Notes: generated by a model from the letters alone, not told the origin. DNA of 64,000 bases from Bacteroidota bacterium (GCA_020832235.1 JAFIEZ010000003.1:76224-140223); one strand, 5' to 3'; positions 13,554 to 63,881 are shown, counted from the first letter of the stretch. Program-made: numbers and translations.

Positions 13554-13569
13554 TTCGCTACTTAAACGA

Positions 13570-13641: not shown

Positions 13642-13644
13642 TCA

Positions 13645-13755: not shown

Positions 13756-13769
13756 GGGGGGCTCAGTTT

Positions 13770-14021
13770 CTAACTTTCTGTCCACAGAATTTTATAGCCA
13801 CTTGCCATATATCTTTCTGGCTTCATTGTGGTCATTGAGTTTACCGTCATCAGCATCTTTATGCCCTTATTGATGGACTCCTTTTCAGTAGCTGATAAAC
13901 GCTCCCCAAACGCGTCCTTTTCACTTTTCCGAATGGCCAGTACTTTTTCAATAATACTTGGATTATCAATGGTCGAGAGCCATTGGATCAATTCAAGTGT
14001 TTTAAGATCGTGTTGAGCCAT
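13770..14021 (-). pseudogene. degraded type II TA module: frameshifted antitoxin fused to a 12-codon RelE/ParE-type toxin stub
   Basis: The N-terminal part (LELIQWLSTIDNPSIIEKVLAIRKSE...SATEKESINKGI) matches antitoxins found next to ParE-like toxins in Bacteroidota. After ggcataaag the +1 frame reads KDADDGKLNDHNEARKIYGKWL*, the expected antitoxin C-terminus. The tracked frame instead runs into MASGYKILWTES*, a toxin N-terminus cut short. Confidence 0.5.
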
Positions 14022-16914: not shown

Positions 16915-18186
16915 ATGTTAGATATAGCATACATACGTGCGAATACGGAGCTGGTAAAAACCGGCATGGTTAACAAAGGCGAAAAAACCACCGATGTGGT
17001 AGACCGTGTACTGGAAGTCGATGAAAAATGGCGTTCCCTCGTTCATGAAATCGACACCCTCAGAAGTACCTCCAACGCGCGATCGAAGGAAATCGGCAAA
17101 CTTATGGGTCAGGGCAAGAAGGAAGAAGCCCAGGTCATCATGAGTGAGACCGCCACGGCCAAAGACACCATCAAACGACTCGAAGAAGAGCTCGGCGTTC
17201 TGGCGCAGGAGCGCACCGACTTGCTGTACCGCATTCCCAATGTGCCGCACGAATCGGTACCTGTAGGACATACCGATGCCGATAATGTCGTGCATTCTAC
17301 CTGGGGCGATCCGCTTCCGCAGGAATGGCGCGTTCCGCACTGGGATTTGGCCAAAGACCACAACTGGATTGATTTCGAGCGTGGGGTTAAGGTGACAGGG
17401 GCGGGGTTCCCGTTCTACGTAGGCACCGGCGCACGTCTGCAGCGGGCCTTGATTAATTTCTTCCTGAACAGTGCCGCTGAGCGAGGATACACCGAGCTTC
17501 AGGCGCCGTATTTTGTAAATGAAGATTCTGCGCGCGGTACAGGACAGATTCCGGACAAAGAAGACATGATGTACACGATTCCCCGTGACGGATTCTTCGC
17601 TATACCGACCGCCGAAGTGCCGGTAACCAATTTCCACCGCGATGAAATATTGGAACTCAATGAGCTGCCCGTGAAATATTGCGGGTACACACCCTGCTGG
17701 CGACGTGAGGCCGGGTCGTATGGTAAAGATGTGCGCGGACTAAACCGCCTGCATCAGTTCGATAAAGTAGAGCTCGTGAAATTTGTACATCCTGATACCT
17801 CTTACGACGAGCTGGAAAGTCTGCGGGAGGATGCCGAACTATTACTGCAGGCGCTTGGACTACCTTACCGAACCCTGCTTATGTGCACGGGAGATATGGG
17901 ATTCACCCAGACCAAGAAATACGATCTGGAAGTGTGGAGTCCGGGGCAGCAACGCTGGCTCGAGGTGAGCTCCTGTTCGAATTTCGAGAGTTTTCAGGCC
18001 AGACGCATGATGGTTCGTTACCGCGATGAAGACGGCAAGCCCAAAATACTGCACACCCTCAACGGATCAGGACTTGCCCTTCCACGTATCGTGTCGGCTA
18101 TCCTGGAAACCTATCAGGAGGCATCGGGCAAGGTTCGTATTCCCGAAGTACTCAAGCCGTTTCTGGGCAACAGCGATTATTTGTAA
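16915..18186 (+). CDS. serS: serine--tRNA ligase
   Basis: 423 aa. N-terminal coiled-coil arm and class II core motifs (FPFYVGTGARLQRAL, CWRREAGSYGKDVRGLNRLHQFDKVE, LNGSGLALPR). Confidence 0.95.
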   Translation: MLDIAYIRANTELVKTGMVNKGEKTTDVVDRVLEVDEKWRSLVHEIDTLRSTSNARSKEIGKLMGQGKKEEAQVIMSETATAKDTIKRLEEELGVLAQERTDLLYRIPNVPHESVPVGHTDADNVVHSTWGDPLPQEWRVPHWDLAKDHNWIDFERGVKVTGAGFPFYVGTGARLQRALINFFLNSAAERGYTELQAPYFVNEDSARGTGQIPDKEDMMYTIPRDGFFAIPTAEVPVTNFHRDEILELNELPVKYCGYTPCWRREAGSYGKDVRGLNRLHQFDKVELVKFVHPDTSYDELESLREDAELLLQALGLPYRTLLMCTGDMGFTQTKKYDLEVWSPGQQRWLEVSSCSNFESFQARRMMVRYRDEDGKPKILHTLNGSGLALPRIVSAILETYQEASGKVRIPEVLKPFLGNSDYL

Positions 18187-18195
18187 GTTATAGCA

Positions 18196-18231
18196 AAAGA
18201 GGTTTCAGGAACTAAATCCGGAAACCTCTTT
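18196..18231. terminator. bidirectional hairpin terminator between convergent serS and usp genes
   Basis: Perfect 11-bp stem aaagaggtttc / gaaacctcttt with a 14-nt loop, A-run upstream and T-rich downstream. Confidence 0.6.
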
Positions 18232-18261
18232 GTGTGAGCTTCTAGCAATTATCGTGGAGAA

Positions 18262-19137
18262 TCAATCTTCTTCGACGTTCTCCTCTGCAACCTCGTTCCA
18301 ATCTGGACCGGTAACCGGGTTGGTGATGATTACATTGGTATCTACATTTCGGATAACAGTGCCGGTAGTAGAACCCATTTTCAGGTAATCTAGCCCGGTT
18401 CGTCCCAGTGTTGCCATTACAACCAGATTGTATTCATTATCACTTATGTGTCTGGTTATAAACTCATGGGCTGACTTTTTGGTGAGTTTCGCTTCATAGG
18501 TAACCCGATCCGCAATACTCGGGAAGTATCGCTCAACATAACTCCTGAATTTTTTCTCTTTAGTGCGTACATAGGCCTCCAGATGTGTAGCAGGCTCGGT
18601 GCTGTGATAGGTGACAGCGTAGAGTAAGTGTATAGAGGCGTCTGAGAGCTCTGCAAGTTTAGCTGCAAGGCCATAGGAGTTCTTCGCATTTTGAGAGAAG
18701 TCAGTAGTTACCAGAATTTTATTCAACGGGAACAAAGAATCTTCATTTTTAACCACAAGAACCGGTGGCTTTGATAAACGAACAACTTTTTCAGTTACCG
18801 AGCCCAGCATAAGTTTACTGATACCGGTACGGCCGTGAGACGACATTACCACAAGGTCATACTCTTTTGCTACATCAATAATAGCATCAACCGGTTTATG
18901 TTCAGATACCAGGCATTCACCCTTTACGGATGCATCAAGATGTGAGCTTACAAGGGCATCAAGGTCTTCTTTGGCTGTTTCAATAGATGAGTCTGAACGT
19001 TCATAACGATTTTTTTCAAAAGAATATAATACACTTACTTTCCCATCCACTAATGTGGCCATTTTGCCGGCTACACGGAGTGCTTTTAAGCTAATTTCAG
19101 AGAAATCAGTAGGTACCAGTATAGTTAGTTTTTTCAC
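18262..19137 (-). CDS. universal stress protein, tandem UspA domains
   Basis: 291 aa. Two Usp repeats, each ending in a (M)SSHGRTG / ATLGRTG ...GS(T/V) ATP-binding-type motif. Confidence 0.8.
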   Translation of the reverse strand: MKKLTILVPTDFSEISLKALRVAGKMATLVDGKVSVLYSFEKNRYERSDSSIETAKEDLDALVSSHLDASVKGECLVSEHKPVDAIIDVAKEYDLVVMSSHGRTGISKLMLGSVTEKVVRLSKPPVLVVKNEDSLFPLNKILVTTDFSQNAKNSYGLAAKLAELSDASIHLLYAVTYHSTEPATHLEAYVRTKEKKFRSYVERYFPSIADRVTYEAKLTKKSAHEFITRHISDNEYNLVVMATLGRTGLDYLKMGSTTGTVIRNVDTNVIITNPVTGPDWNEVAEENVEED

Positions 19138-19345
19138 GACGACCTCCTCGTATACAAATAATTTATTAACGGTTTTTATACTTAGAATATGCTACAAATT
19201 TACGGTTTAAAAAAATATGATGAATGTCAGAAAAAGCGCTTTTTTATCAATTATGAATGATTTGTGTTTAAAAGTTGAATTTTTTGTGCGTGGAAATAGC
19301 CGTATATTCTTTTCTTGTTTTATATCATCTCAAAGTCCTATCTAT

Positions 19346-20206
19346 ATGCTTCGTGTATTCTTTATAACAACATTGCTGTTAAGTGGTACCCTTTCATTTA
19401 ATACTTCAGCAGACGATGTGGAACGTATTACAAAGTGGCTAGAGGAAGGGCAAGAACGCTTTCATGAAATATATGATCACGAGCTAACGAGAGAGCAACA
19501 AATCAGTGAGTTGATTCGCTTCTATTCAACGCGACATTTGGGTATAACCTATGTGGGAGGTTTATTGGAAGAACCCCCAGTTGAAACGCTCGTGATAACG
19601 CTGCAGGGCTCTGATTGCGTATTGTTTGTTGAACACGCTATGGCCATGACCATGACTACGATGCAGGGATCAACTGATTTTGAGCAGTTTGCATCAAATT
19701 TGGCGCTTTTCAGATACGGGGATGGTATTATTGATGGTTATGCCAGCAGACTACATTACTTCTCCGACTGGTTAAGAACGAATGCCTCATTCAGCAGAAT
19801 ACGTATTCTTTTTCAGTACGATGAGTTGCCATCGCTGTCTAATGTGCATTTCATGTCCAGCAATAGAGAGTCTTACAGACAGTTAGCTGAGAGCGACTCT
19901 CTATTTGCACGCATAGGTCAGCGCGAGCAGGAACTCAATAGCTATAGTGGCTTACGGTTTATTCCCCAGGATGATATCCCGAATTTTGAAACGCAATTGA
20001 AAACCGGCGATATACTCTCATTTGTAACAACCATCGATGGTTTGGATATTTCACATACCGCAATAGTAAAACGAGAAGGGGACAGCGTTGGCTTTTGGCA
20101 TGCTTCAACTACCGGCTCTGTAATCGAAGATCCCAAAACCATTTATGAGTACACGCGCGATCGCCGAAATGTGAAGGGTATTATAGTAGCACGACCACTA
20201 TTTTAA
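19346..20206 (+). CDS. DUF1460-family (amidase-like) secreted protein
   Basis: ATG 19346 gives the signal-peptide-like start MLRVFFITTLLLSGTLSF. DCVLFVEHAMAM, LHYFSDWL and GDILSF...DISHTAIV segments fit DUF1460. Confidence 0.55.
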   Translation: MLRVFFITTLLLSGTLSFNTSADDVERITKWLEEGQERFHEIYDHELTREQQISELIRFYSTRHLGITYVGGLLEEPPVETLVITLQGSDCVLFVEHAMAMTMTTMQGSTDFEQFASNLALFRYGDGIIDGYASRLHYFSDWLRTNASFSRIRILFQYDELPSLSNVHFMSSNRESYRQLAESDSLFARIGQREQELNSYSGLRFIPQDDIPNFETQLKTGDILSFVTTIDGLDISHTAIVKREGDSVGFWHASTTGSVIEDPKTIYEYTRDRRNVKGIIVARPLF

Positions 20207-20215
20207 AGAAATCTG

Positions 20216-20860
20216 TTAAAAATCGAGTGTTCGCAATAACCTGCGTGCATCTGTGGTGTAACTGAACTCTCGAAGTTTCTCTCCGTCCAGCTCATATGTA
20301 ATTGTAAATCGAATATCTTCGGCCAGTTGCGGTGGAGTGTTTAGCAGAAATGTAGTTTGGTCAGCCACTGTTGGTTCTCCCTGCAAATAAGACTCAAGGC
20401 TTTGAGTCGTAGCCCCGATGGCCAGATAGATCGTGTAAACGTTAAACAAAGACCGGAGTTCGCTCCCTGCAGGAAATTCCGGAGTGTAATCTTTATCCGC
20501 GGTAATAGATATATTTAATACCCGCTCATCGGATGTTATGTTTGGGATTACGCAAACGGCTCTGGCCTCATTTATGGGTTGAAACAGACTGGCAATAGGT
20601 GCGTTTTCGCTGGTGTAGGTTTCGGCAATGGGTACAAAGCTGACCGCGTATTCACTAAATAGCACAGTACGACCACCAATTTGCTGAAATTGCGGTACGT
20701 CTGACCCCGGAACAAAAAGCATCCGGTTTTCCAACGCCGCAAAGTCTAGTGTTCGAAAACGGTCGTCAAAAACGCAGGAGTCACCTAGGTCACATGAAAT
20801 TGTGAAAAAAGTAGATCCAATGAGGGTTAACATCAGTACGAGAGTCGCTCTTTTCAGCAT
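20216..20860 (-). CDS. hypothetical lipoprotein
   Basis: 214 aa. Signal peptide with a Cys (LIGSTFFTISC). No recognised family. Confidence 0.5.
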   Translation of the reverse strand: MLKRATLVLMLTLIGSTFFTISCDLGDSCVFDDRFRTLDFAALENRMLFVPGSDVPQFQQIGGRTVLFSEYAVSFVPIAETYTSENAPIASLFQPINEARAVCVIPNITSDERVLNISITADKDYTPEFPAGSELRSLFNVYTIYLAIGATTQSLESYLQGEPTVADQTTFLLNTPPQLAEDIRFTITYELDGEKLREFSYTTDARRLLRTLDF

Positions 20861-21008
20861 ATTCTATCTTCGGTAATTTTGTTACAGCTATTTGCGCAGT
20901 ACTAATGCGCTTTGAATTCAAATATACAGCAAAAAAGCCGGTTTAGGGGGAGTATTAATCCGAATTATTCTGCCGAGGGCTGTAATTTCATATCTATCCG
21001 GAAGGGTA

Positions 21009-21521
21009 TTAACCCAGTAAGTTGAAAATAAATTTTAGTACCGGTGGGGCAGCTATTATGAGTGTGAACAGATTGTTACTGTCTTTAAAATTTCGGGAGA
21101 TGTACATAGAAGACAATATTAAAACAACATTTCCATCAGATACTTCATAGAGTCCACGGAGGCGGTTGGTTTTACCTTTTACCCGGGTTTCTGAACCTTC
21201 TGTGAGCTCCCATTTACTCGTCCATACAGACGAATGGTTCCAATGATATACTTTATTGCCAAGCTTGACGGTGGCCTTGTTTTTTAACAGGCCTTTATTT
21301 AAGTCTATGGTTCCCACTACCTGACTGCTGGAAAGGTCAATGATATCTGTAGTTGACTTAAACCATCCTCTTTTTTTGAATTTAAAGCGGTGCTTTAAGA
21401 GTGTTCCTTCGGCATTATCTTTTAAAAAACCATATCGGTATCTGCCTACTTTTTCATTTTTGATGAAAAAAGTAAAGCGATTTAGAAATAGCGTTTTTTC
21501 CCAGGCAAGCGTGATATTCAT
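21009..21521 (-). CDS. hypothetical protein with a C-terminal hydrophobic helix
   Basis: 170-aa Lys-rich ORF. No recognised family. Confidence 0.4.
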   Translation of the reverse strand: MNITLAWEKTLFLNRFTFFIKNEKVGRYRYGFLKDNAEGTLLKHRFKFKKRGWFKSTTDIIDLSSSQVVGTIDLNKGLLKNKATVKLGNKVYHWNHSSVWTSKWELTEGSETRVKGKTNRLRGLYEVSDGNVVLILSSMYISRNFKDSNNLFTLIIAAPPVLKFIFNLLG

Positions 21522-21587
21522 GGTTTTTAATATAATGGGTAAACGTAATTGTGCTATTTACGCAAAAACGGCAACCAAGTTGCCATG

Positions 21588-22499
21588 TTACGGCAGATCT
21601 TCAAACCATGCAATCGCGCGTTTCATATCTTCATCAAAATTCTTGACTAAGCCATCGTGTGTGTCGTTTTCAAGTCGTATAAGTTCAGCATTGGGGATGG
21701 AAGACGCCACGAAATGACCGTGAGAAAAAAGCACAATACGATCTTCGGTTCCATGCATCACAAGTGTCGGTGCCATGATCTTCGACAAATCATAAACAGG
21801 GAGTTCTGACATGTTAATTAAGTCGTTTTCAAGGCCATCCTGTACCGTATGTACCGGAAAAAGGCTCTTCAGATAAAGAGAAGCAATACGTCTATTGTAG
21901 GGATTTCTATCACGTCTTGAAACCCATTGAAATGCAATCCAAAGACCAAATTCGGTATTGGTTATTCGGTCGGCTAGTCGAGGTGCAGCGAACTCAATGG
22001 CCATACTCACCGCACCATACATGACTAATACCGCAGTTTTGTCGGGATGCCTCTTTGCAAATTGTAGTGCGGAAGGTCCGCCTCCCGAGATGCCAAGAAC
22101 AAATACGTTGTGGATACCCAGATAGGTGAGTAATTCAGCGTAAGCATCAGCCTGTTCTTGCGGTGTTCGACCAACATCTAATGATGATCGCGCATAACCC
22201 GGTCTGGAAACGATGAGTACGCGATAACCAGCCTGTGTGAAAACTTCAGGAGTCATATGAGAATGGGTACCTGGAGTGCCATGAAGTAATAAAATGGTTT
22301 GATTACCATCTCCTTCAAGCCTGTACTCCAATGCACCCTTACTCAGGTTCGCAATTGCTGCATTACCTGGAAGTTTGATATCCGTTTGAGAACGCCAATG
22401 CAGAAAGTACCCGTACAGCGATGCTAGTGCCAGCAGGGCTGTCAATAATGCAAGAATCACTGTATAGGCAAGTATCCTTCGATTCATTAACGTCTTCAA
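21588..22499 (-). CDS. alpha/beta-fold hydrolase with N-terminal membrane anchor
   Basis: 303 aa. HGTPG oxyanion region, GISGGG nucleophile elbow, C-terminal D...H. Confidence 0.75.
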   Translation of the reverse strand: MKTLMNRRILAYTVILALLTALLALASLYGYFLHWRSQTDIKLPGNAAIANLSKGALEYRLEGDGNQTILLLHGTPGTHSHMTPEVFTQAGYRVLIVSRPGYARSSLDVGRTPQEQADAYAELLTYLGIHNVFVLGISGGGPSALQFAKRHPDKTAVLVMYGAVSMAIEFAAPRLADRITNTEFGLWIAFQWVSRRDRNPYNRRIASLYLKSLFPVHTVQDGLENDLINMSELPVYDLSKIMAPTLVMHGTEDRIVLFSHGHFVASSIPNAELIRLENDTHDGLVKNFDEDMKRAIAWFEDLP

Positions 22500-33051: not shown

Positions 33052-34119
33052 TTGATACAGAAAACCACGAATATCGAGGCAGAATCGCCCAGAAACTATT
33101 TATCACTCAGGTACATGGTGTTTTCCATTTCCCTGAGCCTGTTTACTATGGGTGCTGTCATGTATTTTACCTGGAGTCCCGAAGGATTTGAATACGTCCA
33201 GCTAAAACGACTACCCGGACTCATCATCGCTTTTTTTGTTTCCTTGCTCAGATTATGGTTTTTGGCCGCAAAGTATCGGATTCTAAGCGACAATATGCTT
33301 TCATGGCCTGGATCTTTACGTGTAATATTGACCTGGGATTTTGCCTCTGCCATCACTCCATCAACCATAGGAGGCGGACCAGTTGCTGCGTATGCTATGA
33401 CCCGTGAACGAATCCCCTTGGGTAAATCAGGAGGTATAATGCTATATGGCGTGTTATTAGACCAACTGTTTTACGTCATGATCATACCTATTCTTATTAC
33501 AATGGGTTTCTATTATGAGGTAATTCCCTCCAATGTAGGCTGGGTAGGTATAGGCGCCATGTTTTTGATTTATACTGCCTTACTTCTCTACGCACTTATT
33601 CTTGTCTATGGTTTGCTTGTAAACCCAAAATCGCTCAAAAAGCTTGTACGGTTTTTATCTGCTATACCCTTTTTAAAAGGTCTACGAAAGAAGTTGCTCT
33701 CTGAAAGCGACAACCTTGTTACTTTCTCCGAAAACCTCCGGAAAAAGCCCCGCAGCTTTTTGGTCAAAGCTTTTGCCTTTTCAACATTAGGGTGGTTGTC
33801 AAGAGTAGCCCTTCCGAGTATTGTCGTATTGAGCTTTTTTCCAGCGGATGTACTTTTGACATTCTTGAGATCGTTTTCAATGACTCTGGCAGGCCTGTTT
33901 ATACCTACTCCAGGGGGAAGTGGTGGGGCTGAGGCACTTTTTTTGCTTTTCCAGGGGCCACTTTATGAAAGAGTTGTCTTTATAGGAGTATCAATTTTCT
34001 TCTGGAGATTATATACATACTATTTGAGTATTGGGATGGGCGTATTTGTGATGACGTGGTATATGAAACCCCAAAAGCCAATTTTTGTAGAAACACATAG
34101 AGATAGCAAGAAAAATTAA
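33052..34119 (+). CDS. UPF0104 (lysylphosphatidylglycerol-synthase TM-region-like, flippase-like) membrane protein
   Basis: About 8 TM helices. The PTPGGSGGAEA motif is characteristic of this family. The start is uncertain (tracked TTG 33052; ATG at 33115). Confidence 0.65.
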   Translation: MIQKTTNIEAESPRNYLSLRYMVFSISLSLFTMGAVMYFTWSPEGFEYVQLKRLPGLIIAFFVSLLRLWFLAAKYRILSDNMLSWPGSLRVILTWDFASAITPSTIGGGPVAAYAMTRERIPLGKSGGIMLYGVLLDQLFYVMIIPILITMGFYYEVIPSNVGWVGIGAMFLIYTALLLYALILVYGLLVNPKSLKKLVRFLSAIPFLKGLRKKLLSESDNLVTFSENLRKKPRSFLVKAFAFSTLGWLSRVALPSIVVLSFFPADVLLTFLRSFSMTLAGLFIPTPGGSGGAEALFLLFQGPLYERVVFIGVSIFFWRLYTYYLSIGMGVFVMTWYMKPQKPIFVETHRDSKKN

Positions 34120-34194
34120 GGATACCAATGCAACTTAGTTGCATGTTTCATAGCGTGGTTTTATATTGGTCTCAACTTTAAACTAATCTCGGTT

Positions 34195-34590
34195 ATGAAA
34201 CGTGTTTTAACAGTCGGTGTATTTGACTTATACCATTTCGGCCACCTAAAAGTACTTGAAATGGCTCGTAAACAAGGCGACTACCTTATAACAGCGGTAC
34301 ATGATGACGTCTTGATGAGTAAGGGTTACCCTTTCTTCTATTCACTGGAGCAGCGAATGGAGATAGTTAGCAGTTGCCGGTGGGTCGATGAAGTAGTACC
34401 ATACATGAGTGTAGATACCATAGTGAAAGAGATTAACTTCGATGTTTTTGCTCACGGACCAGATCAGAATCATGTATTATTTCAGAGAGCCATATCATGG
34501 TGTAGAGCTAATGGAAAAGACGTGATTTGCCTACCAAGAACAGAAGGTATATCAAGTACACAAATTAGGAAATTGGCTGCAATCGGCTAA
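34195..34590 (+). CDS. cytidylyltransferase-family protein (TagD-like small nucleotidyltransferase)
   Basis: 131 aa. GVFDLYHFGHLKVLEMA HxGH motif and C-terminal ISST.IR. Confidence 0.8.
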   Translation: MKRVLTVGVFDLYHFGHLKVLEMARKQGDYLITAVHDDVLMSKGYPFFYSLEQRMEIVSSCRWVDEVVPYMSVDTIVKEINFDVFAHGPDQNHVLFQRAISWCRANGKDVICLPRTEGISSTQIRKLAAIG

Positions 34591-34723
34591 TTTAGAGACT
34601 ATTATACAATAGCAAAGTTTAAAGGCATAAAAAAAGCCGGATCACGTATGAACCAGCTTGTTTTAATTTGTGCACCCTGAAAATTAACAGAACCCGTAAA
34701 GACAGAAATGCACTAAAAACGCT

Positions 34724-34918
34724 TTAGTAGTTATCGCGCTGACGACGACGCTCATCCCGCACACTTTTCTTCATGTCTTCACGCTTTACTTCAGATGGTT
34801 TGCGATACTGCTGTCGCTCTTTGTATTCTACCATGAGGCGTGAACGTGTAACCATTTTCTTGAAACGGTTAATTGCGCGGTCAATGCTTTCGTTGTCTTT
34901 AATTTTAATGCCGATCAT
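34724..34918 (-). CDS. rpsU: 30S ribosomal protein S21
   Basis: 64 aa. ESIDRAINRFKKMVTRSRLMVEYKERQQYRKPSE. Confidence 0.9.
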   Translation of the reverse strand: MIGIKIKDNESIDRAINRFKKMVTRSRLMVEYKERQQYRKPSEVKREDMKKSVRDERRRQRDNY

Positions 34919-35142
34919 AAAATGTTATTTTGAAATTTGGTTCTGTTATATGTCTAAAAGTATACAGAAAACAAATATACAGTAAATATTTTAGATTTTC
35001 CAACTCTGGTAAGAATGATTAATTGCTGAAAGTTTAGTTATGACCTGGTGATTTACGGTTTCGGGTATTCTTCGGAAAATTCTATTCAATTTGGTATTTT
35101 ATGTAAATATTTATAAATGGTGGTGATATTAAATACAGTCGT

Positions 35143-38100
35143 ATGAAAGGGGTTTTCTGGCTTTCACTAGTAGTTTTTTTTCAGCCATCCGTTTCTGCTG
35201 CTGAAACGGATGACTATGTTATTGAACGAATCCAGCATCCAGATTTCATACCTGGATTTATAGCCTCAATAGCTCAGGATCACAGTGGTTTTATGTGGTT
35301 TGCCACATCAGACGGGTTGTTTCGGTACGACGGTGTAGGATTTGTGGTATTCAAATCTGAAGTAAGAAACCCGCTTTCTTTGCCAAACAACAACATCAGG
35401 TATGTGTATGTTGATTCAAACGGAACACTATGGGCTCTGACCCAGGGCGGAGGTTTATCAAGGTATAATCCCATGAACCAGACCTTTGATACATTTTTAC
35501 CTACGAGCGAGTTAACCGAAGCTGTAGCCGGAACGTTTGACTTTTGGACCATATTTGAAGCAGATAACAGTTTGTATATCAGTTCTCATGGAGGTAATGG
35601 ATTTTTCCGTTTCAACCTAGAAACGCATACGTTTGATCTCGTTGAGCTTCCAAGTACAGACCGCCGTCACTTTATACAAACCAGTAGCCTTATTAAGTCT
35701 GAAGAAGGAGACATATGGATTGGAACAGATGAATCTGGTATCGTTATTTTATCTGATTATGACCAAATATCTACGCTTTCCATTGCAAGTGGTCATTTAT
35801 CATCCGATAGAGTTCGTTCCATTTTTCAAGCTTCTGATGGTACCATATGGGCAGGAACTATAGGCGGAGGTGTCGCGCAGTTTGACTCCGAAACCCGAAC
35901 CAGACGCTCAAACGTTACAGCGCTCAAAGTTATACCCGGGCTCCATGAGGCATCAGTGTATAGTTTTTTTGAAGATCCCAGATCCAATATCTGGATTGCC
36001 TCAAGTATCGGACTAATAGTTTACAATCATGTCACAAATCGAGTTGTGAATCATTATGTGTACGATCCTGGCAATCCTCGCAGTTTATCAAGTAGCCTTA
36101 TTAGAAGTATCTATCAGGATAGAAGCGGAGTAATTTGGGCTGGTACTCAAAATGCAGGGTTGAATAAACTGACTATCAGGCAGAGATTTATCAATATAGT
36201 TCCCCAAAGCCGCTCATCAGAAGGGATTTTGAATAATCCAATAGTGAGATCGATGACCATCTACCAGGGCGAGTTATGGATTGGAACGGAAGCAGGCGGC
36301 ATAAATATAGCGGATCTTGCAGGCTATAATCTACTTCGGGTTAAAACGTCGGGAGGTTCTGACTACCCCGGCCTGCAAAGCAATGAAATCACCACGTTCG
36401 CTCATGACCCTGACGGAGGTCTTTGGGTTGGAACCTGGGGCGGTGGCCTTCACTACTTTGATCCGATTCAGGATAATTTTACGCCCTTCAGACACCAGCC
36501 AGATGACAGCCTATCCATATCAGATGATCGTATCCAATTCTTGTATATCGACTCTTCGGGAAGATACTGGGTTGGTACAGAGAACGGGCTAAACAGATTT
36601 AATCGTGAGGAAGGGACATTTTATCGTATTAAACATGACCCTGATGACCCGTCAACGCTTTCAGGTAATAGCTTACAAACGCTTGGATTTCTAGAGTGCT
36701 CGCCTGGTGTATTCTGGGTTGCCAGCTGGCAGGGTCTAAACCGTTTCGACAGTCATACGGGTAAGGTGCAACGATTCATTTCAGATCCGGTGAATCCAAA
36801 TACCATCAGTTCCAATCATGTGATATCGTTGTTAAAAGACGGTGAATATCTTTGGATGGGTACGTTTGGTGGTGGTTTGAACAGGTTAAACGTAGAAACA
36901 GGGGATATAGATATTTTTACAGAAGCCACCGGTCTGCCTAATAACGTTATCTTTGCAATACTACAAGATCAGGATGACTATTTATGGCTGAGCAGCAGCA
37001 GGGGCCTGTCGAAATTCGATACGGCTACGTTGTCTTTTGTTAACTACACTGAATCAGACGGATTACAAGGGAATGATTTCTGGTGGGGCTCTGCGTATAA
37101 AGACGAACAGGGAAAGTTATACTTTGGCGGAACAAATGGCCTTACCATTTTAGACCCACGGTCTATCGTTATGTCTGACTATGAGCCAGCCGTAAACATA
37201 TCCTCTGTTTCCATAAACTCTGAAGCACCCGCTTTGGTCAAAAACGGAGATTTCATAATTCTTGAGCCAGGATATAATGCTTTAACCGTAGAATTCGCTT
37301 CGTTGGATTTCAGTGATCCTTTGAAAAACCAATATGCGTATATGCTTGAAGGGCTATCTCGGGAATGGACGTATACGGGCAATCGAAGTATTGTTAGTTT
37401 TGCTTCGCTACCTCCTGGCAGCTACACGTTTAGGGTGCGTGGCACAAACAGCGCCGGAGATTGGAGTAGTAATCAAGCTGAGCTATTTCTGGTAGTCAAG
37501 CCCATGTTTTATCAGACACTCCTTTTTCAACTAATGGCTATTCTTCTACTGGCAGGCTTAATTAGCGGTGGAGTTCTAAACTGGACCAGACTGGCAAGAC
37601 AGAGACAGGCTGAACTCAGAAAACTAGTTGATGAACGCACCCGTGATTTGGCCATTAAACAAGAGGAGTTATTGCAAAGCTATGCGGAGTTACACGGACA
37701 GGCAGTGAAATTGAAAGATAAAAATGCGCAGGTTGCCAGCCAAAATGCCTTAATCTTAGCGAAGAGTCGCGAACTTGAATCGATTAACAGGCAACTTCTT
37801 TCACTCAATCAGGAAAAAAACAGCCTGATTGGTATCGTAGCTCATGATCTAAGGAGTCCCGCAGCTAGCGTAATGAGTGCCCTTCAGTTGCTTCAGCTGC
37901 AACCTGAGCTCACTCGTGATGAGCAGTTGGAACTCTTTAATATGATGGAAGACTTTTTGAATAAACAGTTGTCTATGGTATCTCGAATATTAGATAACCA
38001 GGCCCTGGAAACAGGCGTTATCGATGTTCGCAAGCAGACGGTTGATGTTACTGCTTTATGTATGAAATTGACTTCAGATTACAACACAAAAGCAACATTG

Positions 38101-54578: not shown

Positions 54579-55868
54579 ATGGATCTGACGTTTCTTGCCG
54601 CCGCCGATTTACATCTTGGGAAGGCTTCTTCAGGAGCAAAACGAAATGCAACTGTAAGCTTCAGTTGGGCACCACAGCCAATATCTGCTGCATCAGCGAC
54701 TGCAGCCTGGTTTCGGATTGTAGAAACCGCGATTGATCGTAAGGTTAACGCTGTGCTGCTGGCAGGAGACCTTGTCGATCGCGATAATCATTTTTTCGAG
54801 GCAAGATCGGCATTACTGTCAGGGTTTAACCGCCTGGCTGCGTTTGATATTCCAGCTGTTGTCGTTGCCGGAAACCATGATGCGCAGGTACTCCCAGAAG
54901 TGTTGGCAACAAATAATCTGCCCAATGTTCATCTGCTGGGTCCCAGTGGTAAGTGGACTGAAAAAGTACTCCGTTTTGGTGAGCACAATATCGGATTTGT
55001 CGGCTGGTCGTTTCCGGGTCAGCATGCCAGGTTCGATCCCTTCGCTAAATTTGACCTGCCCCCAGCTGCACACCCTCGTGTAGGCCTGCTACATTGCGAC
55101 TTTGGCGTTACGCAAAGTTTGTACGGTCCTGTGAGTCAATCTTCGCTTCAGCATGGCGACGTGAGCTGCTGGGTGCTCGGTCACATTCACAAGCCAATGC
55201 AGGTGAGTAATATACCCCTGAGCTTTTATCCGGGTTCACCTCAGGCACTTAGTGCCAAAGAACAAGGTGCACATGGATGTGTACTTATTCATATGAATGA
55301 CATATCATTGGAAGACATTGTGTTATCTAGTGTTATTTACGAAAGTCTCGAGGTAAATCTGACAGGATGTGCATCCAATTTAGATGCGCAGGTTCGTTTG
55401 CTTGATGAACTGAACAGGCTGATTGACGTCAGTGATGAAACTACGCAGGAACGTATTATTGATCTGGTGTGGACAGGGGAGCTTGAAAATCCGGCCGCGG
55501 CATCCGACTGGTTGCCCGACCCGCCGGGGTTGATGAACGATGTTCAGGTTACCATAAGAACTGTTTCAAATCAATGCACCATCCCGCTACCAGACTTGAA
55601 AGAACTCGCCAGCGAGGCAGGACCGGTCTCGGTTTTAGCAAATGCCATTTTAGATTTAACGGAAGGGCGCAATACCCCGTTTTTGAAACGATTGAAAGAC
55701 TCGGCAACTGTGGAAGTGCGCAAACTCAACTCTCAAACTTCCTTTGGTCCAATTCGTAAGGATGGTGTTTTACAGGAAAGTGATTCAGTTGAACTTGATA
55801 AGATGCTGATACATGAATGTCGTGCTCTGTTGTCATCCCTTATTTTAACCAGGAGGACTGAGGGATGA
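54579..55868 (+). CDS. Mre11/SbcD-like metallophosphoesterase (DNA repair exonuclease family)
   Basis: 429 aa. Complete calcineurin-like motif set: ADLHLG, AGDLVDRDN, VAGNHDA, LLHCD, LGHIHKP. The C-terminal 200 aa or so are unassigned. Confidence 0.8.
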   Translation: MDLTFLAAADLHLGKASSGAKRNATVSFSWAPQPISAASATAAWFRIVETAIDRKVNAVLLAGDLVDRDNHFFEARSALLSGFNRLAAFDIPAVVVAGNHDAQVLPEVLATNNLPNVHLLGPSGKWTEKVLRFGEHNIGFVGWSFPGQHARFDPFAKFDLPPAAHPRVGLLHCDFGVTQSLYGPVSQSSLQHGDVSCWVLGHIHKPMQVSNIPLSFYPGSPQALSAKEQGAHGCVLIHMNDISLEDIVLSSVIYESLEVNLTGCASNLDAQVRLLDELNRLIDVSDETTQERIIDLVWTGELENPAAASDWLPDPPGLMNDVQVTIRTVSNQCTIPLPDLKELASEAGPVSVLANAILDLTEGRNTPFLKRLKDSATVEVRKLNSQTSFGPIRKDGVLQESDSVELDKMLIHECRALLSSLILTRRTEG

Positions 55869-58800
55869 ACAGGCTAAGAAAACCGATACGTTATCAGCAG
55901 ATGGTGGTTCGTAGAGCTCCCGGATTCCCTGGTGGGATGGATCCGTTGCAAAATTTAGATGCTTCTGTAGTTATAATAACAGGCGCTAACGGCTCAGGTA
56001 AGAGTACAACGGCCAGAGTTATTCAGGAAGTGCTGTCACCTGAAAAACGTTCAGAAACAGAATTTACTTGTAGTTTTGATAAAGACGGTGAGCTCTGGAC
56101 GGTCGAAAAATCAGCAGGTCAGACAAAATGGTTGCGCAATGGTGAAAATGCTGAGCCGGACTTTCTGCCATCCGCAGCGCATCGATCCCATTACATGTTT
56201 GCTATGCATGATCTGCTTCTGAGCGAAGACACAGACCTTGCACGGGTTATCTATGATGCCTCAATCGGTGGGTTCAACATTGAACAGGCATCTAAAGACC
56301 TGAAATACTCGGGTGTTGGTAATAACACCCGAATCACCGAATTCAATCAATATACTGAACTAGAAAAAGCTGCTCAAAAAGCTAAAGATGACCATCGATT
56401 GGTCAAGGAGCGAGAAGCGAATCTCAAATCGCTTGAACAAAAAAGGCAGGAAGGAATCAAGGCCAGGGTTTATCGCGACTATTACAGTCGTGTACTGCAG
56501 TGGGTCGATAAAAAAAATGAATATCGTTTAGCCGAAGATACCTTAAATACTTTCTCTGATAACATTAAGTACGTACAGGAAGGTGATACCGAAAGATGCC
56601 GTTCACTTCAGAAACGCATTGAAGAACTGCATAATAAAATTAAACAGGTTGAACTCGAAATCCAGACATTGGAATCTCAACGCAGTGTCCTGCGAAATAC
56701 AGACCCTGAGCAAGTAGAGAAAGACAGGCGATTGCTCAATCAGCTTCATGCTTCTTATGAAAGCATAACGAGTGAAAAAAATCGTCAGATGGAACAAATT
56801 GAAGCTAAAGTAGCCGAGATAGAGGCGCTTAAACGCTACGTTGGCGATCCAGTCGTGGGAGATAACTCACCAGACCTGGTGAAACTCGAAATGTTGTACC
56901 GAAAATGCCTGTCAGCCGAAGAACAACTCAATTTGCTGTTGACAAGAATTACACACTACCAGGCTGAAGTATCGAAAGAGCTCAATCACACTACATCTGA
57001 GCTAACTGAAGGCATACTTTCTCTTTCGGCCTGGCTTAGGGAGCCTGCCCAACCCAAGCCTACAAAAGTCTCTTTTTGGCCCTGGGTGCTGGCTTCACTA
57101 GCTCTTGTTGCCGGCCTTGCCGGATGGCTAATTGGATTACCAGCTGTTATAATTGGTCTCGCGGCTTTTATCTTGGCTTGGCTGGTTAAACGGCACCAGA
57201 ATACGCAGCTAACTACCCAGCCGGGCGAACATCGCCGTCAAGATTATCAGAACTCAAAACTTCCGCAACCAGAGACTTGGTCTGTCTCTGAAGTCACGAA
57301 ATTGTTAACGGAGTTACAGCATTCGTTACAATCCGCTCACCAGAAACAAAAAAGCGAAGAACAGTTGTCTGAGGCGCAGCGTCAGTACAAAATGGTCGAA
57401 AGTACACTTCATGTAGACCGAAAACAATTAATGAGTTTTGGGGAATCCTGTGGCTTAGACACCAGCCAGATTCAGGACCCCGGATCTTTGTATCAATTTA
57501 TGCGCTATTATGCCAATCTAATCACAGCATCGGCATCATTATCGGGGTACAGAGCTTCTGTTGAACACACTAACGCAAAACTCTCCGAAGTGCAGGCGAA
57601 TCTTACGAAGGTTTTTGCCTCTTATTCCCGACCAGAACATTTTTCAAATACAGACCGGCTTATCGCAGAAATTCACACACTAGCGGAAGAAATGCAGACC
57701 TATCTCAAGGCATCAGCAGAGCTCAGGCACAAAACGGATATCAGCAGGCGCTATAAAGATGATATTGATCAAGCTGAAAGAGAGCTGGAGGAATTGCTGA
57801 AGCGCACAGGCCTGACACCCGAGCAGAGTAGCTTACTGGCCGAACTGGAGTCTGTAAAACCATCTTATCTTAACGCGACGCTGAATTTCAGCAGCCTTGA
57901 TCGCCAACTGAATCAGTTAAAAAAAGACATCACGGAAGATCCTGCATTCGAGCATCATACGATTGATTTCAATTCAATTGATCTGGAACAGATTAAACAA
58001 AAAATCGAACATTACAACGTAGTGCTATCCGACTACGATGCTATAGTAGAAGAAATCGGCGGTATAAACGCTGATGTGAGAAAACTAATGCAGGGAAATA
58101 ATCTTGAAAATGTACTCACCCGATCTGAAGAAGCTCGAGACCAAATAAAAGTTGCTTACCATACAAAGTTGAGATCTGTTTTGGGAAATACGTTGGTCAA
58201 TGAACTTCAGCAGGAGTTGGGTAAAACCAGTGTTCCGGAGGTGATGCATTCTGCTCGACAGTTATTCTCCAGAATCACTAACGGCAGATACCAGTTGGAG
58301 ATTACCAATAAAGGTTCTGACGGATTCAAGGCATTTGACTCCCTTACCCGTTCATTCAAGTTTCTGGCGGAGCTCTCCAGCGGTACGCGCATTCAGCTTT
58401 TACTTTCTGTACGCCTTGCATTCCTTGAAGTGCAGGAAAAGCATGTGAAGTATCCGTTACTAGCCGACGAACTTTTGGCAAACAGCGATGATATTCGTGC
58501 AGAGGCCGTAATTGATACGTTGTTGAATGTAGCCGAAAACGGTCGACAAGTATTCTACTTTACGGCACAATCTGACGAAATATCGAAATGGCAACATAAA
58601 TTCAAGGACTCTGTATCTACGCGTGTTATAGCATTGGGGGAGGATATGAAATCAACCTTCATCTCAGTGAAAAAGCCATCTGTACCGTTGTTGCACAGAA
58701 AGTTACCAGATGCAGCATTATCCTACGATGCGTACCTTCAAGAACTAAATCCTCCAAAATTTGATCTGATTTATGATGAACCAGACTCAATTCAACTGGT

Positions 58801-59329
58801 GTATGTTGTAACCGAAACCAAGCTGCTTCATGCATTTCTCACCAACCATATCAACTATTGGTCGCAGCTGCAGAACTTAATTCAAAGTGGTAATACACCC
58901 AACTATCTTGACGACGAGAACGTAAGGTATATAATGCTCAGGGTAATGGCTATTAAAGAGGCTGCCGAATTGATTCGCATCGGAAGGCCCCGACCAATCG
59001 GTTATCGCGAAATTGAAGAATCGGGTGCAGTTAGTCCAACTTTTATGAGCCAGGTCATCGATTTACTTCAGCTTGAGTGTGATCACAACCCTGAAGTACT
59101 TATTGCCAGGCTCAGAGATAAAGCTGTTTCTAACTTTAAGCAGACAAAGATCGACCAGCTTGAAGAGTTTTTGCTTGATGGTGGCTACCTTACCTCAGAA
59201 CAGCCTTTAAATAATGATGAATATCGTCAGCGTATGAGTCAATGGCTTCAACGCAACGAGATCAGTTTTGATGAATTTGACCAACTAATGGAAAGAATTT
59301 CGGAAAATGTTAAAGTAGGCAAGCCATGA
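55865..59329 (+). CDS. Rad50/SbcC/YhaN-like SMC-type ATPase with internal TM hairpin and C-terminal extension
   Basis: 1154 aa. Walker A GANGSGKST, long heptad-rich regions, signature-like LSSGTRIQLLLSVRLAF, Walker B PLLADELLANSD. Two hydrophobic helices at residues about 402-441. ATGA overlaps on both sides. Confidence 0.75.
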   Translation: MNRLRKPIRYQQMVVRRAPGFPGGMDPLQNLDASVVIITGANGSGKSTTARVIQEVLSPEKRSETEFTCSFDKDGELWTVEKSAGQTKWLRNGENAEPDFLPSAAHRSHYMFAMHDLLLSEDTDLARVIYDASIGGFNIEQASKDLKYSGVGNNTRITEFNQYTELEKAAQKAKDDHRLVKEREANLKSLEQKRQEGIKARVYRDYYSRVLQWVDKKNEYRLAEDTLNTFSDNIKYVQEGDTERCRSLQKRIEELHNKIKQVELEIQTLESQRSVLRNTDPEQVEKDRRLLNQLHASYESITSEKNRQMEQIEAKVAEIEALKRYVGDPVVGDNSPDLVKLEMLYRKCLSAEEQLNLLLTRITHYQAEVSKELNHTTSELTEGILSLSAWLREPAQPKPTKVSFWPWVLASLALVAGLAGWLIGLPAVIIGLAAFILAWLVKRHQNTQLTTQPGEHRRQDYQNSKLPQPETWSVSEVTKLLTELQHSLQSAHQKQKSEEQLSEAQRQYKMVESTLHVDRKQLMSFGESCGLDTSQIQDPGSLYQFMRYYANLITASASLSGYRASVEHTNAKLSEVQANLTKVFASYSRPEHFSNTDRLIAEIHTLAEEMQTYLKASAELRHKTDISRRYKDDIDQAERELEELLKRTGLTPEQSSLLAELESVKPSYLNATLNFSSLDRQLNQLKKDITEDPAFEHHTIDFNSIDLEQIKQKIEHYNVVLSDYDAIVEEIGGINADVRKLMQGNNLENVLTRSEEARDQIKVAYHTKLRSVLGNTLVNELQQELGKTSVPEVMHSARQLFSRITNGRYQLEITNKGSDGFKAFDSLTRSFKFLAELSSGTRIQLLLSVRLAFLEVQEKHVKYPLLADELLANSDDIRAEAVIDTLLNVAENGRQVFYFTAQSDEISKWQHKFKDSVSTRVIALGEDMKSTFISVKKPSVPLLHRKLPDAALSYDAYLQELNPPKFDLIYDEPDSIQLVYVVTETKLLHAFLTNHINYWSQLQNLIQSGNTPNYLDDENVRYIMLRVMAIKEAAELIRIGRPRPIGYREIEESGAVSPTFMSQVIDLLQLECDHNPEVLIARLRDKAVSNFKQTKIDQLEEFLLDGGYLTSEQPLNNDEYRQRMSQWLQRNEISFDEFDQLMERISENVKVGKP

Positions 59330-60609
59330 GCAAAACAACAATGAAATCAATCACCCTGGCTATTATTTTTATTAGCCTGAACGCTCTGCAAATGTATGCT
59401 CAGGTTCCATTTTTAATGGTACAACCTGAGGAAGTCGGCATATCATCAGAAAGGCTTCAGCGTCTTGATGATATGCTACGTGATTATGCAAACCAACAAC
59501 GAGTAGCGGGATCGGTAACGCTCATTCTACGCGACGGTCGGGCCGTTTATTTTGAAGCATCGGGCTACAAAGATGTGGAAAATAAGGTGCCTATGACAAG
59601 AGATGCCCTGTTTCGAATAGCTTCTCAAACCAAAGCCATTGTGAGCGCAGGGGTGATGATTCTGCAGGAACAGGGAAAAATTCTGATTTCCGATCCTGTT
59701 GGTAATTATTTGCCGGAATTTCTCGAAACCACCGTAGCTATAAGAAGTCCGGTAGATGAATCCTACGAAATTGTTCCGGCAAATCGTCCCATCACTATTC
59801 GTGACTTACTGACGCACACAGCGGGAATCAGCTACGGATATGGAATTGCATCGGATAGATGGCGTGAAGCCGGAATTCAGGGCTGGTATCTCGCCGATAG
59901 AGACGAGCCGATACGCGAAATAGTTCGGCGTATAGCTGAACTCCCAATGGATGCACAACCGGGCGAACGATTCGTATATGGATATGCAACGGATATACTG
60001 GGTGCATTAATTGAGGTAGTGAGCGGCCAAACATTGGACCATTTCTTGGAGGAAGAAATATTTACTCCCTTGCAGATGAAGGATACACATTTCTTTATAC
60101 CGCCTCATAAAGCTGATAGAATGACCGTTGTTTATTCTGCAACCAGCGAACGGGGAATTAAAAGGGCTCCAGATCCGGGAGACGGTACCGGCCAGGGACA
60201 CTATATCGATGGGCCTGCGCATGCTTTATCAGGGGGTGCCGGTCTTGTATCAACCGCGGAAGACTATGCGCGTTTTCTACAGATGATGCTAAATGGAGGG
60301 ATATTAAACGGAGTTAGAATTCTAAGTCCTACAACCGTTGAGCTTATGACCGTAAACCACTTGAAGGATATTCAATTTCGACCGGGAGAAGGTGTTGGGC
60401 TCGGTTTTGACGTGGTGACAAATCTAGGTTACAGAGGCAGACCGGGAGCAATCGGTGATTTCGGGTGGGGAGGTGCATATCATACTACGTACTGGGTGAG
60501 CCCTCAGGATGCGCTTGTGGTTGTTTTCTTTACCCAATTAAGACCGTCAGCCGGATCTGACATTCATGGCAAACTTCGAACACTGTTGTATCAGGCGATA
60601 ATAGATTAA
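59326..60609 (+). CDS. secreted serine hydrolase (beta-lactamase / class C PBP-like family)
   Basis: 427 aa. Signal peptide, SxxK motif (ASQTK), YGY and GWGG regions typical of the beta-lactamase fold. Confidence 0.8.
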   Translation: MSKTTMKSITLAIIFISLNALQMYAQVPFLMVQPEEVGISSERLQRLDDMLRDYANQQRVAGSVTLILRDGRAVYFEASGYKDVENKVPMTRDALFRIASQTKAIVSAGVMILQEQGKILISDPVGNYLPEFLETTVAIRSPVDESYEIVPANRPITIRDLLTHTAGISYGYGIASDRWREAGIQGWYLADRDEPIREIVRRIAELPMDAQPGERFVYGYATDILGALIEVVSGQTLDHFLEEEIFTPLQMKDTHFFIPPHKADRMTVVYSATSERGIKRAPDPGDGTGQGHYIDGPAHALSGGAGLVSTAEDYARFLQMMLNGGILNGVRILSPTTVELMTVNHLKDIQFRPGEGVGLGFDVVTNLGYRGRPGAIGDFGWGGAYHTTYWVSPQDALVVVFFTQLRPSAGSDIHGKLRTLLYQAIID

Positions 60610-60610
60610 C

Positions 60611-61225
60611 ATGAAAGAGTTTTGGAATGAGCGTTATAGTGCAGAAAAATATGTTTTTGGCACGAATCCTAACGCATATTTTAAGTCTAAGATAGACCAA
60701 CTGAAACCGGGTAAATTGCTGTTGCCGGCTGAAGGTGAAGGACGAAATGCTGTTTATGCAGCTAAAATAGGATGGAACGTGACTGCATTTGACATCAGCG
60801 AACAGGCAAAGGTTAAGGCAGAATTGCTCGCAAAGCGGAATGATGTTACAATAAAATACGAGGTAGGTAAAATTGAAAACCTCAGCTACTCTCAAGGTTA
60901 TTTTGATACCATAGGATTGATCTTTTTTCATTTATCACCCGAAAAAAGACTCGAAACCCACCGTAAGATTTGGTCACTACTTAAACCAGGTGGTACGCTC
61001 ATTTTCCAGGGGTATGATATTGAGCACGCTATCTATCGCGAAAAATACGGCTCAATAGGTGGGCCACACCATGAGAGTTTAATGTATACAGAGAGCGAAG
61101 TCGTAACATTTTTTGCGGATAGTCAGGTAATAGAATCCCATACAGCTGACACGGAACTATATGAGGGAGAGAGCCATACAGGGTTGAGCAGAGTAATTAA
61201 TATGACTTTACTAAAAGTGATTTAA
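60611..61225 (+). CDS. class I SAM-dependent methyltransferase
   Basis: 204 aa. LLLPAEGEGRNAVYAA motif-I variant and LKPGGTLIF. Starts 1 nt after the hydrolase stop. Confidence 0.7.
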   Translation: MKEFWNERYSAEKYVFGTNPNAYFKSKIDQLKPGKLLLPAEGEGRNAVYAAKIGWNVTAFDISEQAKVKAELLAKRNDVTIKYEVGKIENLSYSQGYFDTIGLIFFHLSPEKRLETHRKIWSLLKPGGTLIFQGYDIEHAIYREKYGSIGGPHHESLMYTESEVVTFFADSQVIESHTADTELYEGESHTGLSRVINMTLLKVI

Positions 61226-63485: not shown

Positions 63486-63881
63486 ATGATTAATCTTTCT
63501 GAATCTCATTTACAGCGTTCCGGCTTAATGGCTATACTTGCATCCGCAATTATGGCACTATTAGGTTACCTTTTACCTGGCGATTCTCTTATTAATCCTG
63601 CATTCATTGTAGGAATTGCCTTTGTATTGGCCCTTTTTGGTTTATTTGCGGTTTTAAGGCCATACGTTCCGAAGAAATTGGCATTCATTGGCGCTGTAAC
63701 CAGCTACATAGCCATGGTAGCATCTGCAATAGTAGCACTAAACTATAATGATGAAGTAGTCGCCCTTGGTGGTTATGCCATTGGATTTATATCCTTTTTA
63801 GCAATACTTGCTAAATTATTCTTGCTTTTGGGGGTATCACACGTCATTTTCCCTGGTAAAGCAGATACTGAAGAGCAATAG
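63486..63881 (+). CDS. hypothetical small membrane protein (4 TM)
   Basis: 131-aa hydrophobic ORF. No family recognised. Confidence 0.45.
   Translation: MINLSESHLQRSGLMAILASAIMALLGYLLPGDSLINPAFIVGIAFVLALFGLFAVLRPYVPKKLAFIGAVTSYIAMVASAIVALNYNDEVVALGGYAIGFISFLAILAKLFLLLGVSHVIFPGKADTEEQ

Follow-up and report, generated by a model that had tools for sequence, protein, structure and literature searches.

We analyzed a cluster of four genes in a 64,000-nt stretch of DNA from a Bacteroidota bacterium (GCA_020832235.1, JAFIEZ010000003.1:76224-140223; hereafter the window, from whose first nucleotide all positions are counted). Four open reading frames (ORFs) lie on the + strand between 54579 and 61225 and encode proteins of 429, 1154, 427 and 204 aa: a nuclease, a Rad50-like ATPase, a serine hydrolase and a methyltransferase (Table 1). 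The nuclease and ATPase genes share an ATGA overlap at 55865 (read as GGG ATGA AC), and the ATPase and hydrolase genes share another at 59326 (GCC ATGA GC). The hydrolase and methyltransferase genes are separated by one nucleotide, at 60610 (TAA C ATG, 60608–60613). The hydrolase ORF has an alternative in-frame start at Met6 (ATG at 59341); this could be the true start, in which case an 11-nt gap replaces the ATGA overlap. Upstream of the cluster, the opposite strand encodes a membrane dipeptidase of the M19 family and a hybrid sensor kinase of the Y_Y_Y type. On the downstream side, the flanking genes are for an SCO1/SenC protein and a methyl-accepting chemotaxis protein. As described below, we think it likely that the nuclease and the ATPase constitute a self-contained two-gene module, and that the other two genes, unrelated to it, happen to stand close behind it in one lineage of the Balneolales.

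Table 1. Genes of the cluster and features of the ATPase, in window coordinates (n, number of ATPase homologues compared)
Feature	Size or residues	Position	Strand	Basis or conservation
Gene 1, SbcD/Mre11-type metallophosphoesterase nuclease (YhaO/SbcF-like)	429 aa	54579..55868	+	PF00149, motifs, homologues
Gene 2, Rad50/SMC-fold ABC ATPase, YhaN/SbcE-like architecture	1154 aa	55865..59329	+	Profile, AF2, Foldseek
Walker A, GANGSGKST	40–48	55982..56008	+	G40, N42, G45, K46 100% conserved, n=155
Two-helix hydrophobic hairpin	404–441	57074..57187	+	Hydropathy, AF2; mid coiled coil, at the Rad50 zinc-hook position
P..W motif, PQPETW	467–472	57263..57280	+	P469 94%, W472 100%, n=155; clade-specific
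Signature LSSGTRIQ, Walker B YPLLADELL, D-loop NSDD	837–844, 863–871, 873–876	58373..58492	+	n=155
Switch region, FYFTAQSDE	897–905	58553..58579	+	Q902 96% conserved, n=155
Clade-specific C-terminal all-alpha domain	~950–1154 (about 200 aa)	58712..59326	+	AF2 and profile alignment
Gene 3, putative exported beta-lactamase-fold serine hydrolase	427 aa	59326..60609	+	PF00144; lineage-specific neighbour
Gene 4, TehB/TPMT-like class I SAM methyltransferase	204 aa	60611..61225	+	Pfam; lineage-specific neighbour

The product of gene 1 contains five phosphoesterase motifs: DLHLG (residues 10–14), GDLVD (63–67), GNHD (98–101), LLHCD (170–174) and GHIH (201–204). Residues D10, H12, D64, N99, H100, H172, H202 and H204, the metal ligands included, are invariant (100%) across 75 family members. 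With these five motifs and a match to PF00149 above the gathering score (42.1 bits, cutoff 21.5), the protein falls into the SbcD/Mre11 branch of the calcineurin-like metallophosphoesterases. Sequence matches in the PDB were to Thermotoga Mre11 and E. coli SbcD (E about 1e-5). The NCBIfam equivalog cutoffs for SbcD and Mre11 were all missed. TIGR00619 came closest, at 48.3 bits versus 77.65, and the other models tried (NF008206, NF041754 and the Mre11 models) scored far below it. A YhaO-type protein from Kyrpidia (Bacillota), encoded upstream of a YhaN-type gene, is closer to the window nuclease (27% identity, E 8e-23) than is any SbcD or Mre11 structure.

The product of gene 2 has the sequence hallmarks of an ATP-binding cassette (ABC) ATPase. 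Walker A, signature, Walker B and D-loop are 98–100% conserved over 155 homologues; S838, D868, E869 and D875 are invariant, and Q844 is conserved in 99%. As a single sequence, the protein gave weak Pfam matches (SMC_N, AAA_29, AAA_15 and AAA_27), all below cutoff. A profile built from nine homologues and compared with the PDB matched both halves of the heads of Rad50 and of structural maintenance of chromosomes (SMC) proteins. The full-length AlphaFold2 (AF2) model, with a predicted local distance difference test score (pLDDT) of 76, consists of an N-terminal beta-rich lobe, helical arms joined by two short helices, a C-terminal lobe and a further helical domain, with the long helices at residues 156–391 and 474–804. 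When this model was searched with Foldseek, the matches were Smc5/6, condensin, Rad50, MukB, JetC, LmuB and SbcC, with E-values from 2.5e-15 to 1e-4. The split ABC head and the long antiparallel coiled coil of the model thus point to an ATPase of the Rad50/SbcC/SMC type.

What lies at the apex of the coiled coil sets this ATPase apart from Rad50. Residues 404–441 form an unbroken stretch of 38 hydrophobic residues, which was scored as two adjacent helices of transmembrane length. In the AF2 model, two short helices occupy residues 405–419 and 426–447, between the two long helical arms, and basic residues come after the second. Central hydropathy peaks occur at the same position in all nine of the close homologues. 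No CxxC motif was found anywhere in the six family members checked, so the zinc hook typical of Rad50 and SbcC is lacking in these proteins. Because the number of helices in the hairpin is even, both halves of the ATPase head are predicted to remain in the cytoplasm. These data suggest that the ATPase is tethered to the membrane by the tip of its coiled coil.

Several other features are shared by the relatives of the window ATPase. The P..W motif lies ~25 aa past the hairpin. In the switch region, profile–profile alignment (hhalign) sets the TAQ of the window ATPase against the TCH of Kyrpidia YhaN, placing Gln902 where the H-loop His stands. There is a precedent for Gln at this position in TAP1. 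With this substitution, ATP may be turned over slowly and the engaged state may last long; an ATPase homodimer would hold two such Gln-switch sites. Finally, the C-terminal domain follows the ATPase head after a disordered linker of ~25 aa (approximately residues 925–945). An AF2 model of residues 905–1154 has 11 helices and a pLDDT of 83. Searches for relatives of the C-terminal domain gave no Foldseek match in the PDB below E 1, no Pfam match at E up to 1 and no match in a PDB profile search. The alignment of the domain is devoid of any conserved 7–10-mer.

The closest characterized parallel for this gene pair comes from B. subtilis. There, SbcE (YhaN) is an SMC-like protein most similar to SbcC, with coiled-coil regions of about 300 aa; it has no CxxC motif, and its central domain is instead unique, hydrophobic and insoluble (PMC2811018). 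Its gene adjoins that of the SbcD-like YhaO (SbcF), and SbcE functions in double-strand-break repair and transformation, forming foci at the competence pole (PMC2811018); such roles are known from B. subtilis alone. The window pair resembles YhaO/YhaN in the order of the genes (nuclease, then ATPase), the SbcD-like metallophosphoesterase partner, the long coiled coils, and the central hydrophobic domain without a CxxC zinc hook. Moreover, proteins named ‘YhaN’ and matching AAA_27 make up the tier just below the window clade in the ATPase profile search (E 1e-27 to 1e-6), and hhalign of the window clade with Kyrpidia YhaN gave a probability of 99% over the C-terminal head. A metallophosphoesterase gene is directly upstream of the Kyrpidia YhaN-type gene, as in the window, and 9 of 12 YhaN-type matches have a central hydrophobic hairpin.

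Yet the window ATPase differs from YhaN in several respects. Its AAA_27 (PF13514) score is 16.1 bits, under the cutoff of 22; seven of the nine close homologues match this family at E<0.01, the best at 5e-6. It carries the extra C-terminal all-alpha domain of ~200 aa, Gln in place of the H-loop His, and the P..W motif, which is absent from YhaN-type matches. All 12 of the YhaN-type matches align up to profile position 908 and end ~25 aa later, whereas the window clade runs ~240 aa further. As judged from their sequences, then, the window proteins share the architecture of YhaO/YhaN but are not orthologues of SbcEF.

Comparison with SbcCD and Mre11–Rad50 gave a similar picture. The likeness lies in the two-gene combination of nuclease and ABC ATPase, the five phosphoesterase motifs, the split ABC head and the fold of the antiparallel coiled coil. 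The nuclease gene comes first in the window, and the order in E. coli is sbcD-sbcC. The window ATPase differs, however, in its apical membrane hairpin, its additional C-terminal domain and its lack of a zinc hook, and both window proteins fall far short of the NCBIfam equivalog cutoffs for SbcD, Mre11 and Rad50.

The two downstream genes encode proteins of other kinds. The product of gene 3 matches PF00144 at 228.8 bits (E 1e-67), has an S-x-x-K nucleophile motif (SQTK, residues 100–103) and begins with a signal-peptide-like N-terminus, as would be expected of an exported serine hydrolase with the beta-lactamase fold. It reached none of the NCBIfam equivalog cutoffs for class C beta-lactamase, AmpH, PBP4B or AcmB, with the nearest being AcmB, a methyl acetate hydrolase. 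The product of gene 4, a class I S-adenosylmethionine (SAM) methyltransferase, matches Methyltransf_25, Methyltransf_11 and TehB (32.2 bits versus a cutoff of 20.4), as well as TPMT and generic class I domains. No DNA-methylase motif, (D/N/S)PP(Y/F/W) or PCQ, is present in it, as would be looked for in a restriction-modification enzyme. By these motifs and matches, gene 4 encodes a methyltransferase of the small-molecule type.

In these respects, an earlier interpretation made from the sequence alone (hereafter the sequence-only reading) has held up. It had described four packed ORFs with these same junctions, a nuclease with all five phosphoesterase motifs, a SAM methyltransferase, and an ATPase with Walker A, signature-like and Walker B motifs and long coiled coils. 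Its proposals of a membrane-tethered Rad50-like ATPase and a secreted beta-lactamase-fold hydrolase agree with the structural model and the sequence matches, respectively. It had also, correctly, likened the first two genes to SbcCD and to Bacillus YhaO/YhaN.

To place the ATPase in a family, we searched for homologues in several ways. A word-indexed search returned nine full-length relatives, giving the impression of a rare family, which an exhaustive profile search corrected: 11,373 representatives (clusters at 50% identity) were found at E<1e-3, of which 1,968 reached E<1e-30. All of the 150 best matches are full length (1130–1240 aa), and almost all of them align end to end. Genomes, one per species, were scanned from the hydrolase side and from the ATPase side. 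With the whole-protein ATPase alignment as query, only six loci were recovered, the search being swamped by generic P-loop patterns. A sub-alignment from Walker B to the switch was therefore used for the census, and it located ATPase relatives in at least 452 species genomes. Whereas the hosts of YhaN are Bacillota, those of the window clade are mainly Bacteroidota (Bacteroidales, Brumimicrobium and Balneolales), along with Planctomycetota, Gemmatimonadota, Fibrobacterota, Elusimicrobiota, Deinococcota, Gammaproteobacteria and Halobacteria.

Throughout this range, the ATPase gene was found with the nuclease gene. Neighbourhoods were compared for about 88 ATPase-encoding loci, the genome-scan part of which is the best 80 of the at least 452. 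The nuclease gene is directly upstream of the ATPase gene in all 12 loci of the first round, and, among 80 further loci, it precedes the ATPase gene in every one that includes upstream DNA. Junctions mostly range from –8 to +10 nt, and often there is an exact 4-nt overlap. In the first five contexts, for instance, the two genes overlap by 4 nt or, in locus L002, abut. Clustering of all genes within three positions on either side of the 88 loci gave no recurrent family beyond the synteny of close relatives. Similarly, a Pfam scan of 142 neighbour proteins yielded 176 families, each found at most four times and most of them housekeeping. These data indicate that the two genes are conserved together, with neighbours that vary.

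The sequence-only reading had proposed a larger unit, in which the hydrolase and methyltransferase join the pair in a distinct envelope-associated DNA-processing or defence module. All four genes could form one such operon, at least in this Balneolales lineage; they are on the same strand, joined by two ATGA overlaps and a 1-nt gap, and the hydrolase gene stands behind the ATPase gene in four related genomes as well as in the window. Nor is there a convincing terminator between the genes, with terminator-like signals among the four being no more frequent than expected by chance in a scan against shuffled sequence. No arrangement is more common in prokaryotic operons than tight same-strand packing, however, and by itself such packing is no evidence for shared function. 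Promoter-like sites in the region likewise did not exceed the shuffled expectation in total, in a scan whose scope excluded Bacteroidota-type promoters. One sigma-70-like match (TTGACG-16 nt-TATAAT, 11/12) lies at 58908–58935, inside the 3′ end of the ATPase gene and ~390 nt upstream of the hydrolase start.

Comparative data argue strongly against the larger unit. Relatives of the hydrolase were found at 472 loci or more, the best 80 of which are 55–69% identical to it and come from Balneolales, Rhodothermales, Cytophagales, Acidobacteriota, Gemmatimonadota, Verrucomicrobiota and others; for a PF00144 family, conservation at this level across many phyla is unusual. In 79 of these 80 loci, the pair is absent upstream of the hydrolase gene, which thus behaves as a highly conserved stand-alone gene. 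The sole locus with the pair (L015) is from ‘Bacteroidetes bacterium HLUCCA01’; it has the dipeptidase and kinase flanks and a methyltransferase of 51% identity. Viewed from the ATPase side, a hydrolase orthologue follows the ATPase gene only in L001, L002, L103 (the same contig as L015) and L155, the last a Balneolales metagenome-assembled genome (MAG). All four are Balneolales with flanks of the window type. Apart from the window, the methyltransferase gene follows the pair only in L103/L015; it is missing from L001, L002 and L155, three of the four closest syntenic relatives, and from all other loci. Among the first five contexts, the hydrolase gene is present only in L001 and L002, which have the dipeptidase and kinase flanks in common with the window, and the methyltransferase gene is present in none. 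Conversely, other Balneolaceae, including the isolate Rhodohalobacter sp. 8-1 (L134), have the pair without the hydrolase or methyltransferase. One Balneolaceae MAG has the hydrolase (L014) and the pair (L118) on separate contigs, with no ATPase gene within 4.2 kb upstream of the hydrolase gene.

The arrangement behind the pair also varies among the syntenic genomes. The ATGA overlap between ATPase and hydrolase genes is kept in L001, but spacers of 76–88 nt take its place in L002, L103 and L155. In L001 the SCO1 gene comes directly after the hydrolase gene, and both the window and L001 have SCO1 and the chemotaxis receptor behind the hydrolase region, with the genes after the hydrolase varying between Balneolales genomes. 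A gene for a small membrane protein, at 63486–63881 in the window, is directly behind the hydrolase or methyltransferase gene in L002, L103 and L155. Because the M19 dipeptidase and sensor kinase genes upstream are likewise common to all five genomes (the window and four others), the adjacency of pair and hydrolase is explained by inherited synteny. An origin of the arrangement by insertion of the pair, with the M19 dipeptidase gene ancestrally next to the hydrolase gene, was considered and rejected: M19 is not beside the hydrolase in the 79 loci without the pair. Compartments argue against a common function as well, with the hydrolase predicted to be exported and the ATPase heads and nuclease cytoplasmic, and so does the small-molecule type of the methyltransferase. 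We therefore regard a functional four-gene operon as highly improbable.

These results decide the fate of the proposed four-gene module. The hydrolase gene follows the ATPase gene in four syntenic Balneolales loci and the methyltransferase gene in one, and the expected co-occurrence of these genes with the ATPase across phyla was not seen. The sequence-only reading had held that its module would fall if only the first two genes were conserved together, with downstream neighbours varying and ordinary repair-type behaviour. On the comparative side this is the pattern found: the first two genes alone are conserved together and their downstream neighbours vary, and the module is thus unsupported. 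The ‘envelope DNA-processing or defence module’ of four genes should be dropped, as a product of local synteny in one lineage.

The low identity of the ATPase to its syntenic relatives raised the question of gene replacement or an arms race. It is 29–36%, versus 67–83% for the flanking genes. When identity was computed by region, however, the heads gave 46–61% and the coiled coils 18–29%, and the relatives ranked as they do for the flanks. Gene replacement or an arms race was rejected on these grounds, since ordinary fast divergence of coiled coils suffices to account for the low overall value.

We also asked how the pair compares with known defence systems. It might act at the membrane in anti-plasmid or anti-phage defence rather than in housekeeping repair, as a Lamassu- or Wadjet-like combination of SMC sensor and nuclease. 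A patchy distribution like this one, over distant phyla and haloarchaea, suggests horizontal transfer. The pair is present on ten haloarchaeal plasmids, its genes labelled in RefSeq as ‘DNA repair exonuclease’ and ‘SMC family ATPase’ with a 4-nt overlap, and some copies are beside a DEAD/DEAH helicase or DUF3883 protein. Examples with this overlap are NZ_CP010531.1, NZ_CP101159.1 and NZ_CP118159.1 (L174, L175 and L176). Neighbours on these plasmids include, besides the helicase and the DUF3883 protein, a large ‘ATP-binding protein’ and many hypotheticals; such surroundings may be accessory or conflict regions. A membrane anchor, moreover, would position the complex where foreign DNA enters. 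Structural and profile matches point the same way in part, with JetC and LmuB among the Foldseek matches and a partial match of the ATPase (residues 469–917) to the PADLOC model of LmuB (E 8e-12).

Yet closer comparison weakens the case. The window pair resembles Lamassu in combining an SMC-like ATPase with a nuclease-type effector and in matching LmuACB structures by Foldseek. It differs in that no LmuA or LmuC homologue was found by PADLOC among the adjacent genes, the effector is a Mre11-type phosphoesterase without a match to any PADLOC model, and the ATPase is twice as long as LmuB and predicted to be membrane-anchored; it does not qualify as Lamassu. Nor does the locus qualify as MADS. 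Matches to mad3 and mad8 are limited to the P-loop end of the ATPase, and the match to mad2 is confined to the generic methyltransferase core; mad2 also hits 4 of the 142 unrelated neighbour proteins, with E-values down to 2.6e-24. Matches to LmuB, mad3 and mad8 span only generic parts of the head or coiled coil, and we judged the PADLOC matches to LmuB, mad2, mad3, mad8, AbiLi and Csx3 to be generic. The PADLOC hidden Markov models, suggested by the sequence-only reading as a check, recognized no defence system here.

The genomic setting likewise gives little sign of defence. Among the 142 neighbour proteins, PADLOC picked out a handful (one type II methyltransferase, one PD-Lambda-2_A, one BrxH and one WYL), and the rest are housekeeping. 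Across Balneolales, the pair has been kept at one syntenic chromosomal locus while the sensor kinases diverged to 43–64% identity, unlike the turnover of defence islands. No full-length copy was found in 50,697 phage records, and the only characterized relative, SbcEF, acts in repair and transformation (PMC2811018). Taken together, these observations make a dedicated defence role for the pair improbable.

Several observations concern the window as a whole. Neither tRNA genes nor Rfam families were found in it. Its sequence was found in sequencing runs solely of bioreactor metagenome DNA, and no RNA-seq run turned up; the host is probably a member of the Balneolales. Three regions (10001–14000, 18001–22000 and 34001–36000) have a G+C content of 0.39–0.42, versus a window average of ~0.46; one of these may be an ‘islet’ mentioned in the sequence-only reading.

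We thus return to the nuclease and ATPase as a two-gene module, which by analogy with its characterized relatives is probably a membrane-tethered complex for processing DNA ends. Some points weigh against this reading. The four genes may share one transcript in this genome, and membership of the window ATPase in YhaN proper is not established, given its AAA_27 score, C-terminal domain, Gln switch and P..W motif. In addition, we found no experimental study of this clade in the literature.

A mechanism can be outlined along the lines of Mre11–Rad50/SbcCD and SbcEF. Two ATPase heads would engage upon binding ATP and clamp DNA or DNA ends, and a nuclease dimer docked on the heads would trim or open the ends. 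The Gln switch would slow ATP hydrolysis and so prolong the engaged state. The membrane anchor would take over from hook-mediated dimerization, and would confine activity to DNA at the inner face of the cytoplasmic membrane, such as incoming DNA or membrane-proximal breaks. On its flexible linker, the C-terminal domain is a candidate module for binding DNA or a partner. The hydrolase and methyltransferase would work independently of the pair, even if they are co-transcribed with it here.

More tentatively, the clade might be a distinct two-gene machine for DNA surveillance or defence, membrane-anchored and not orthologous to SbcEF, with the C-terminal domain acting as sensor or adaptor. We consider this possible but doubtful. 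If true, such a system would survey DNA at the cytoplasmic membrane and intercept or process incoming DNA.

The two-gene family is large and annotated only generically, and has not, as far as we could find, been the subject of a study. The window pair extends complexes of the SbcEF type, Rad50-like and apparently membrane-anchored, beyond Bacillota into Bacteroidota and Archaea. To this architecture, the clade adds a novel C-terminal domain and a systematic change of His to Gln in the ATPase switch. Work on the pair could shed light on the reasons for membrane tethering in some Rad50-like complexes.

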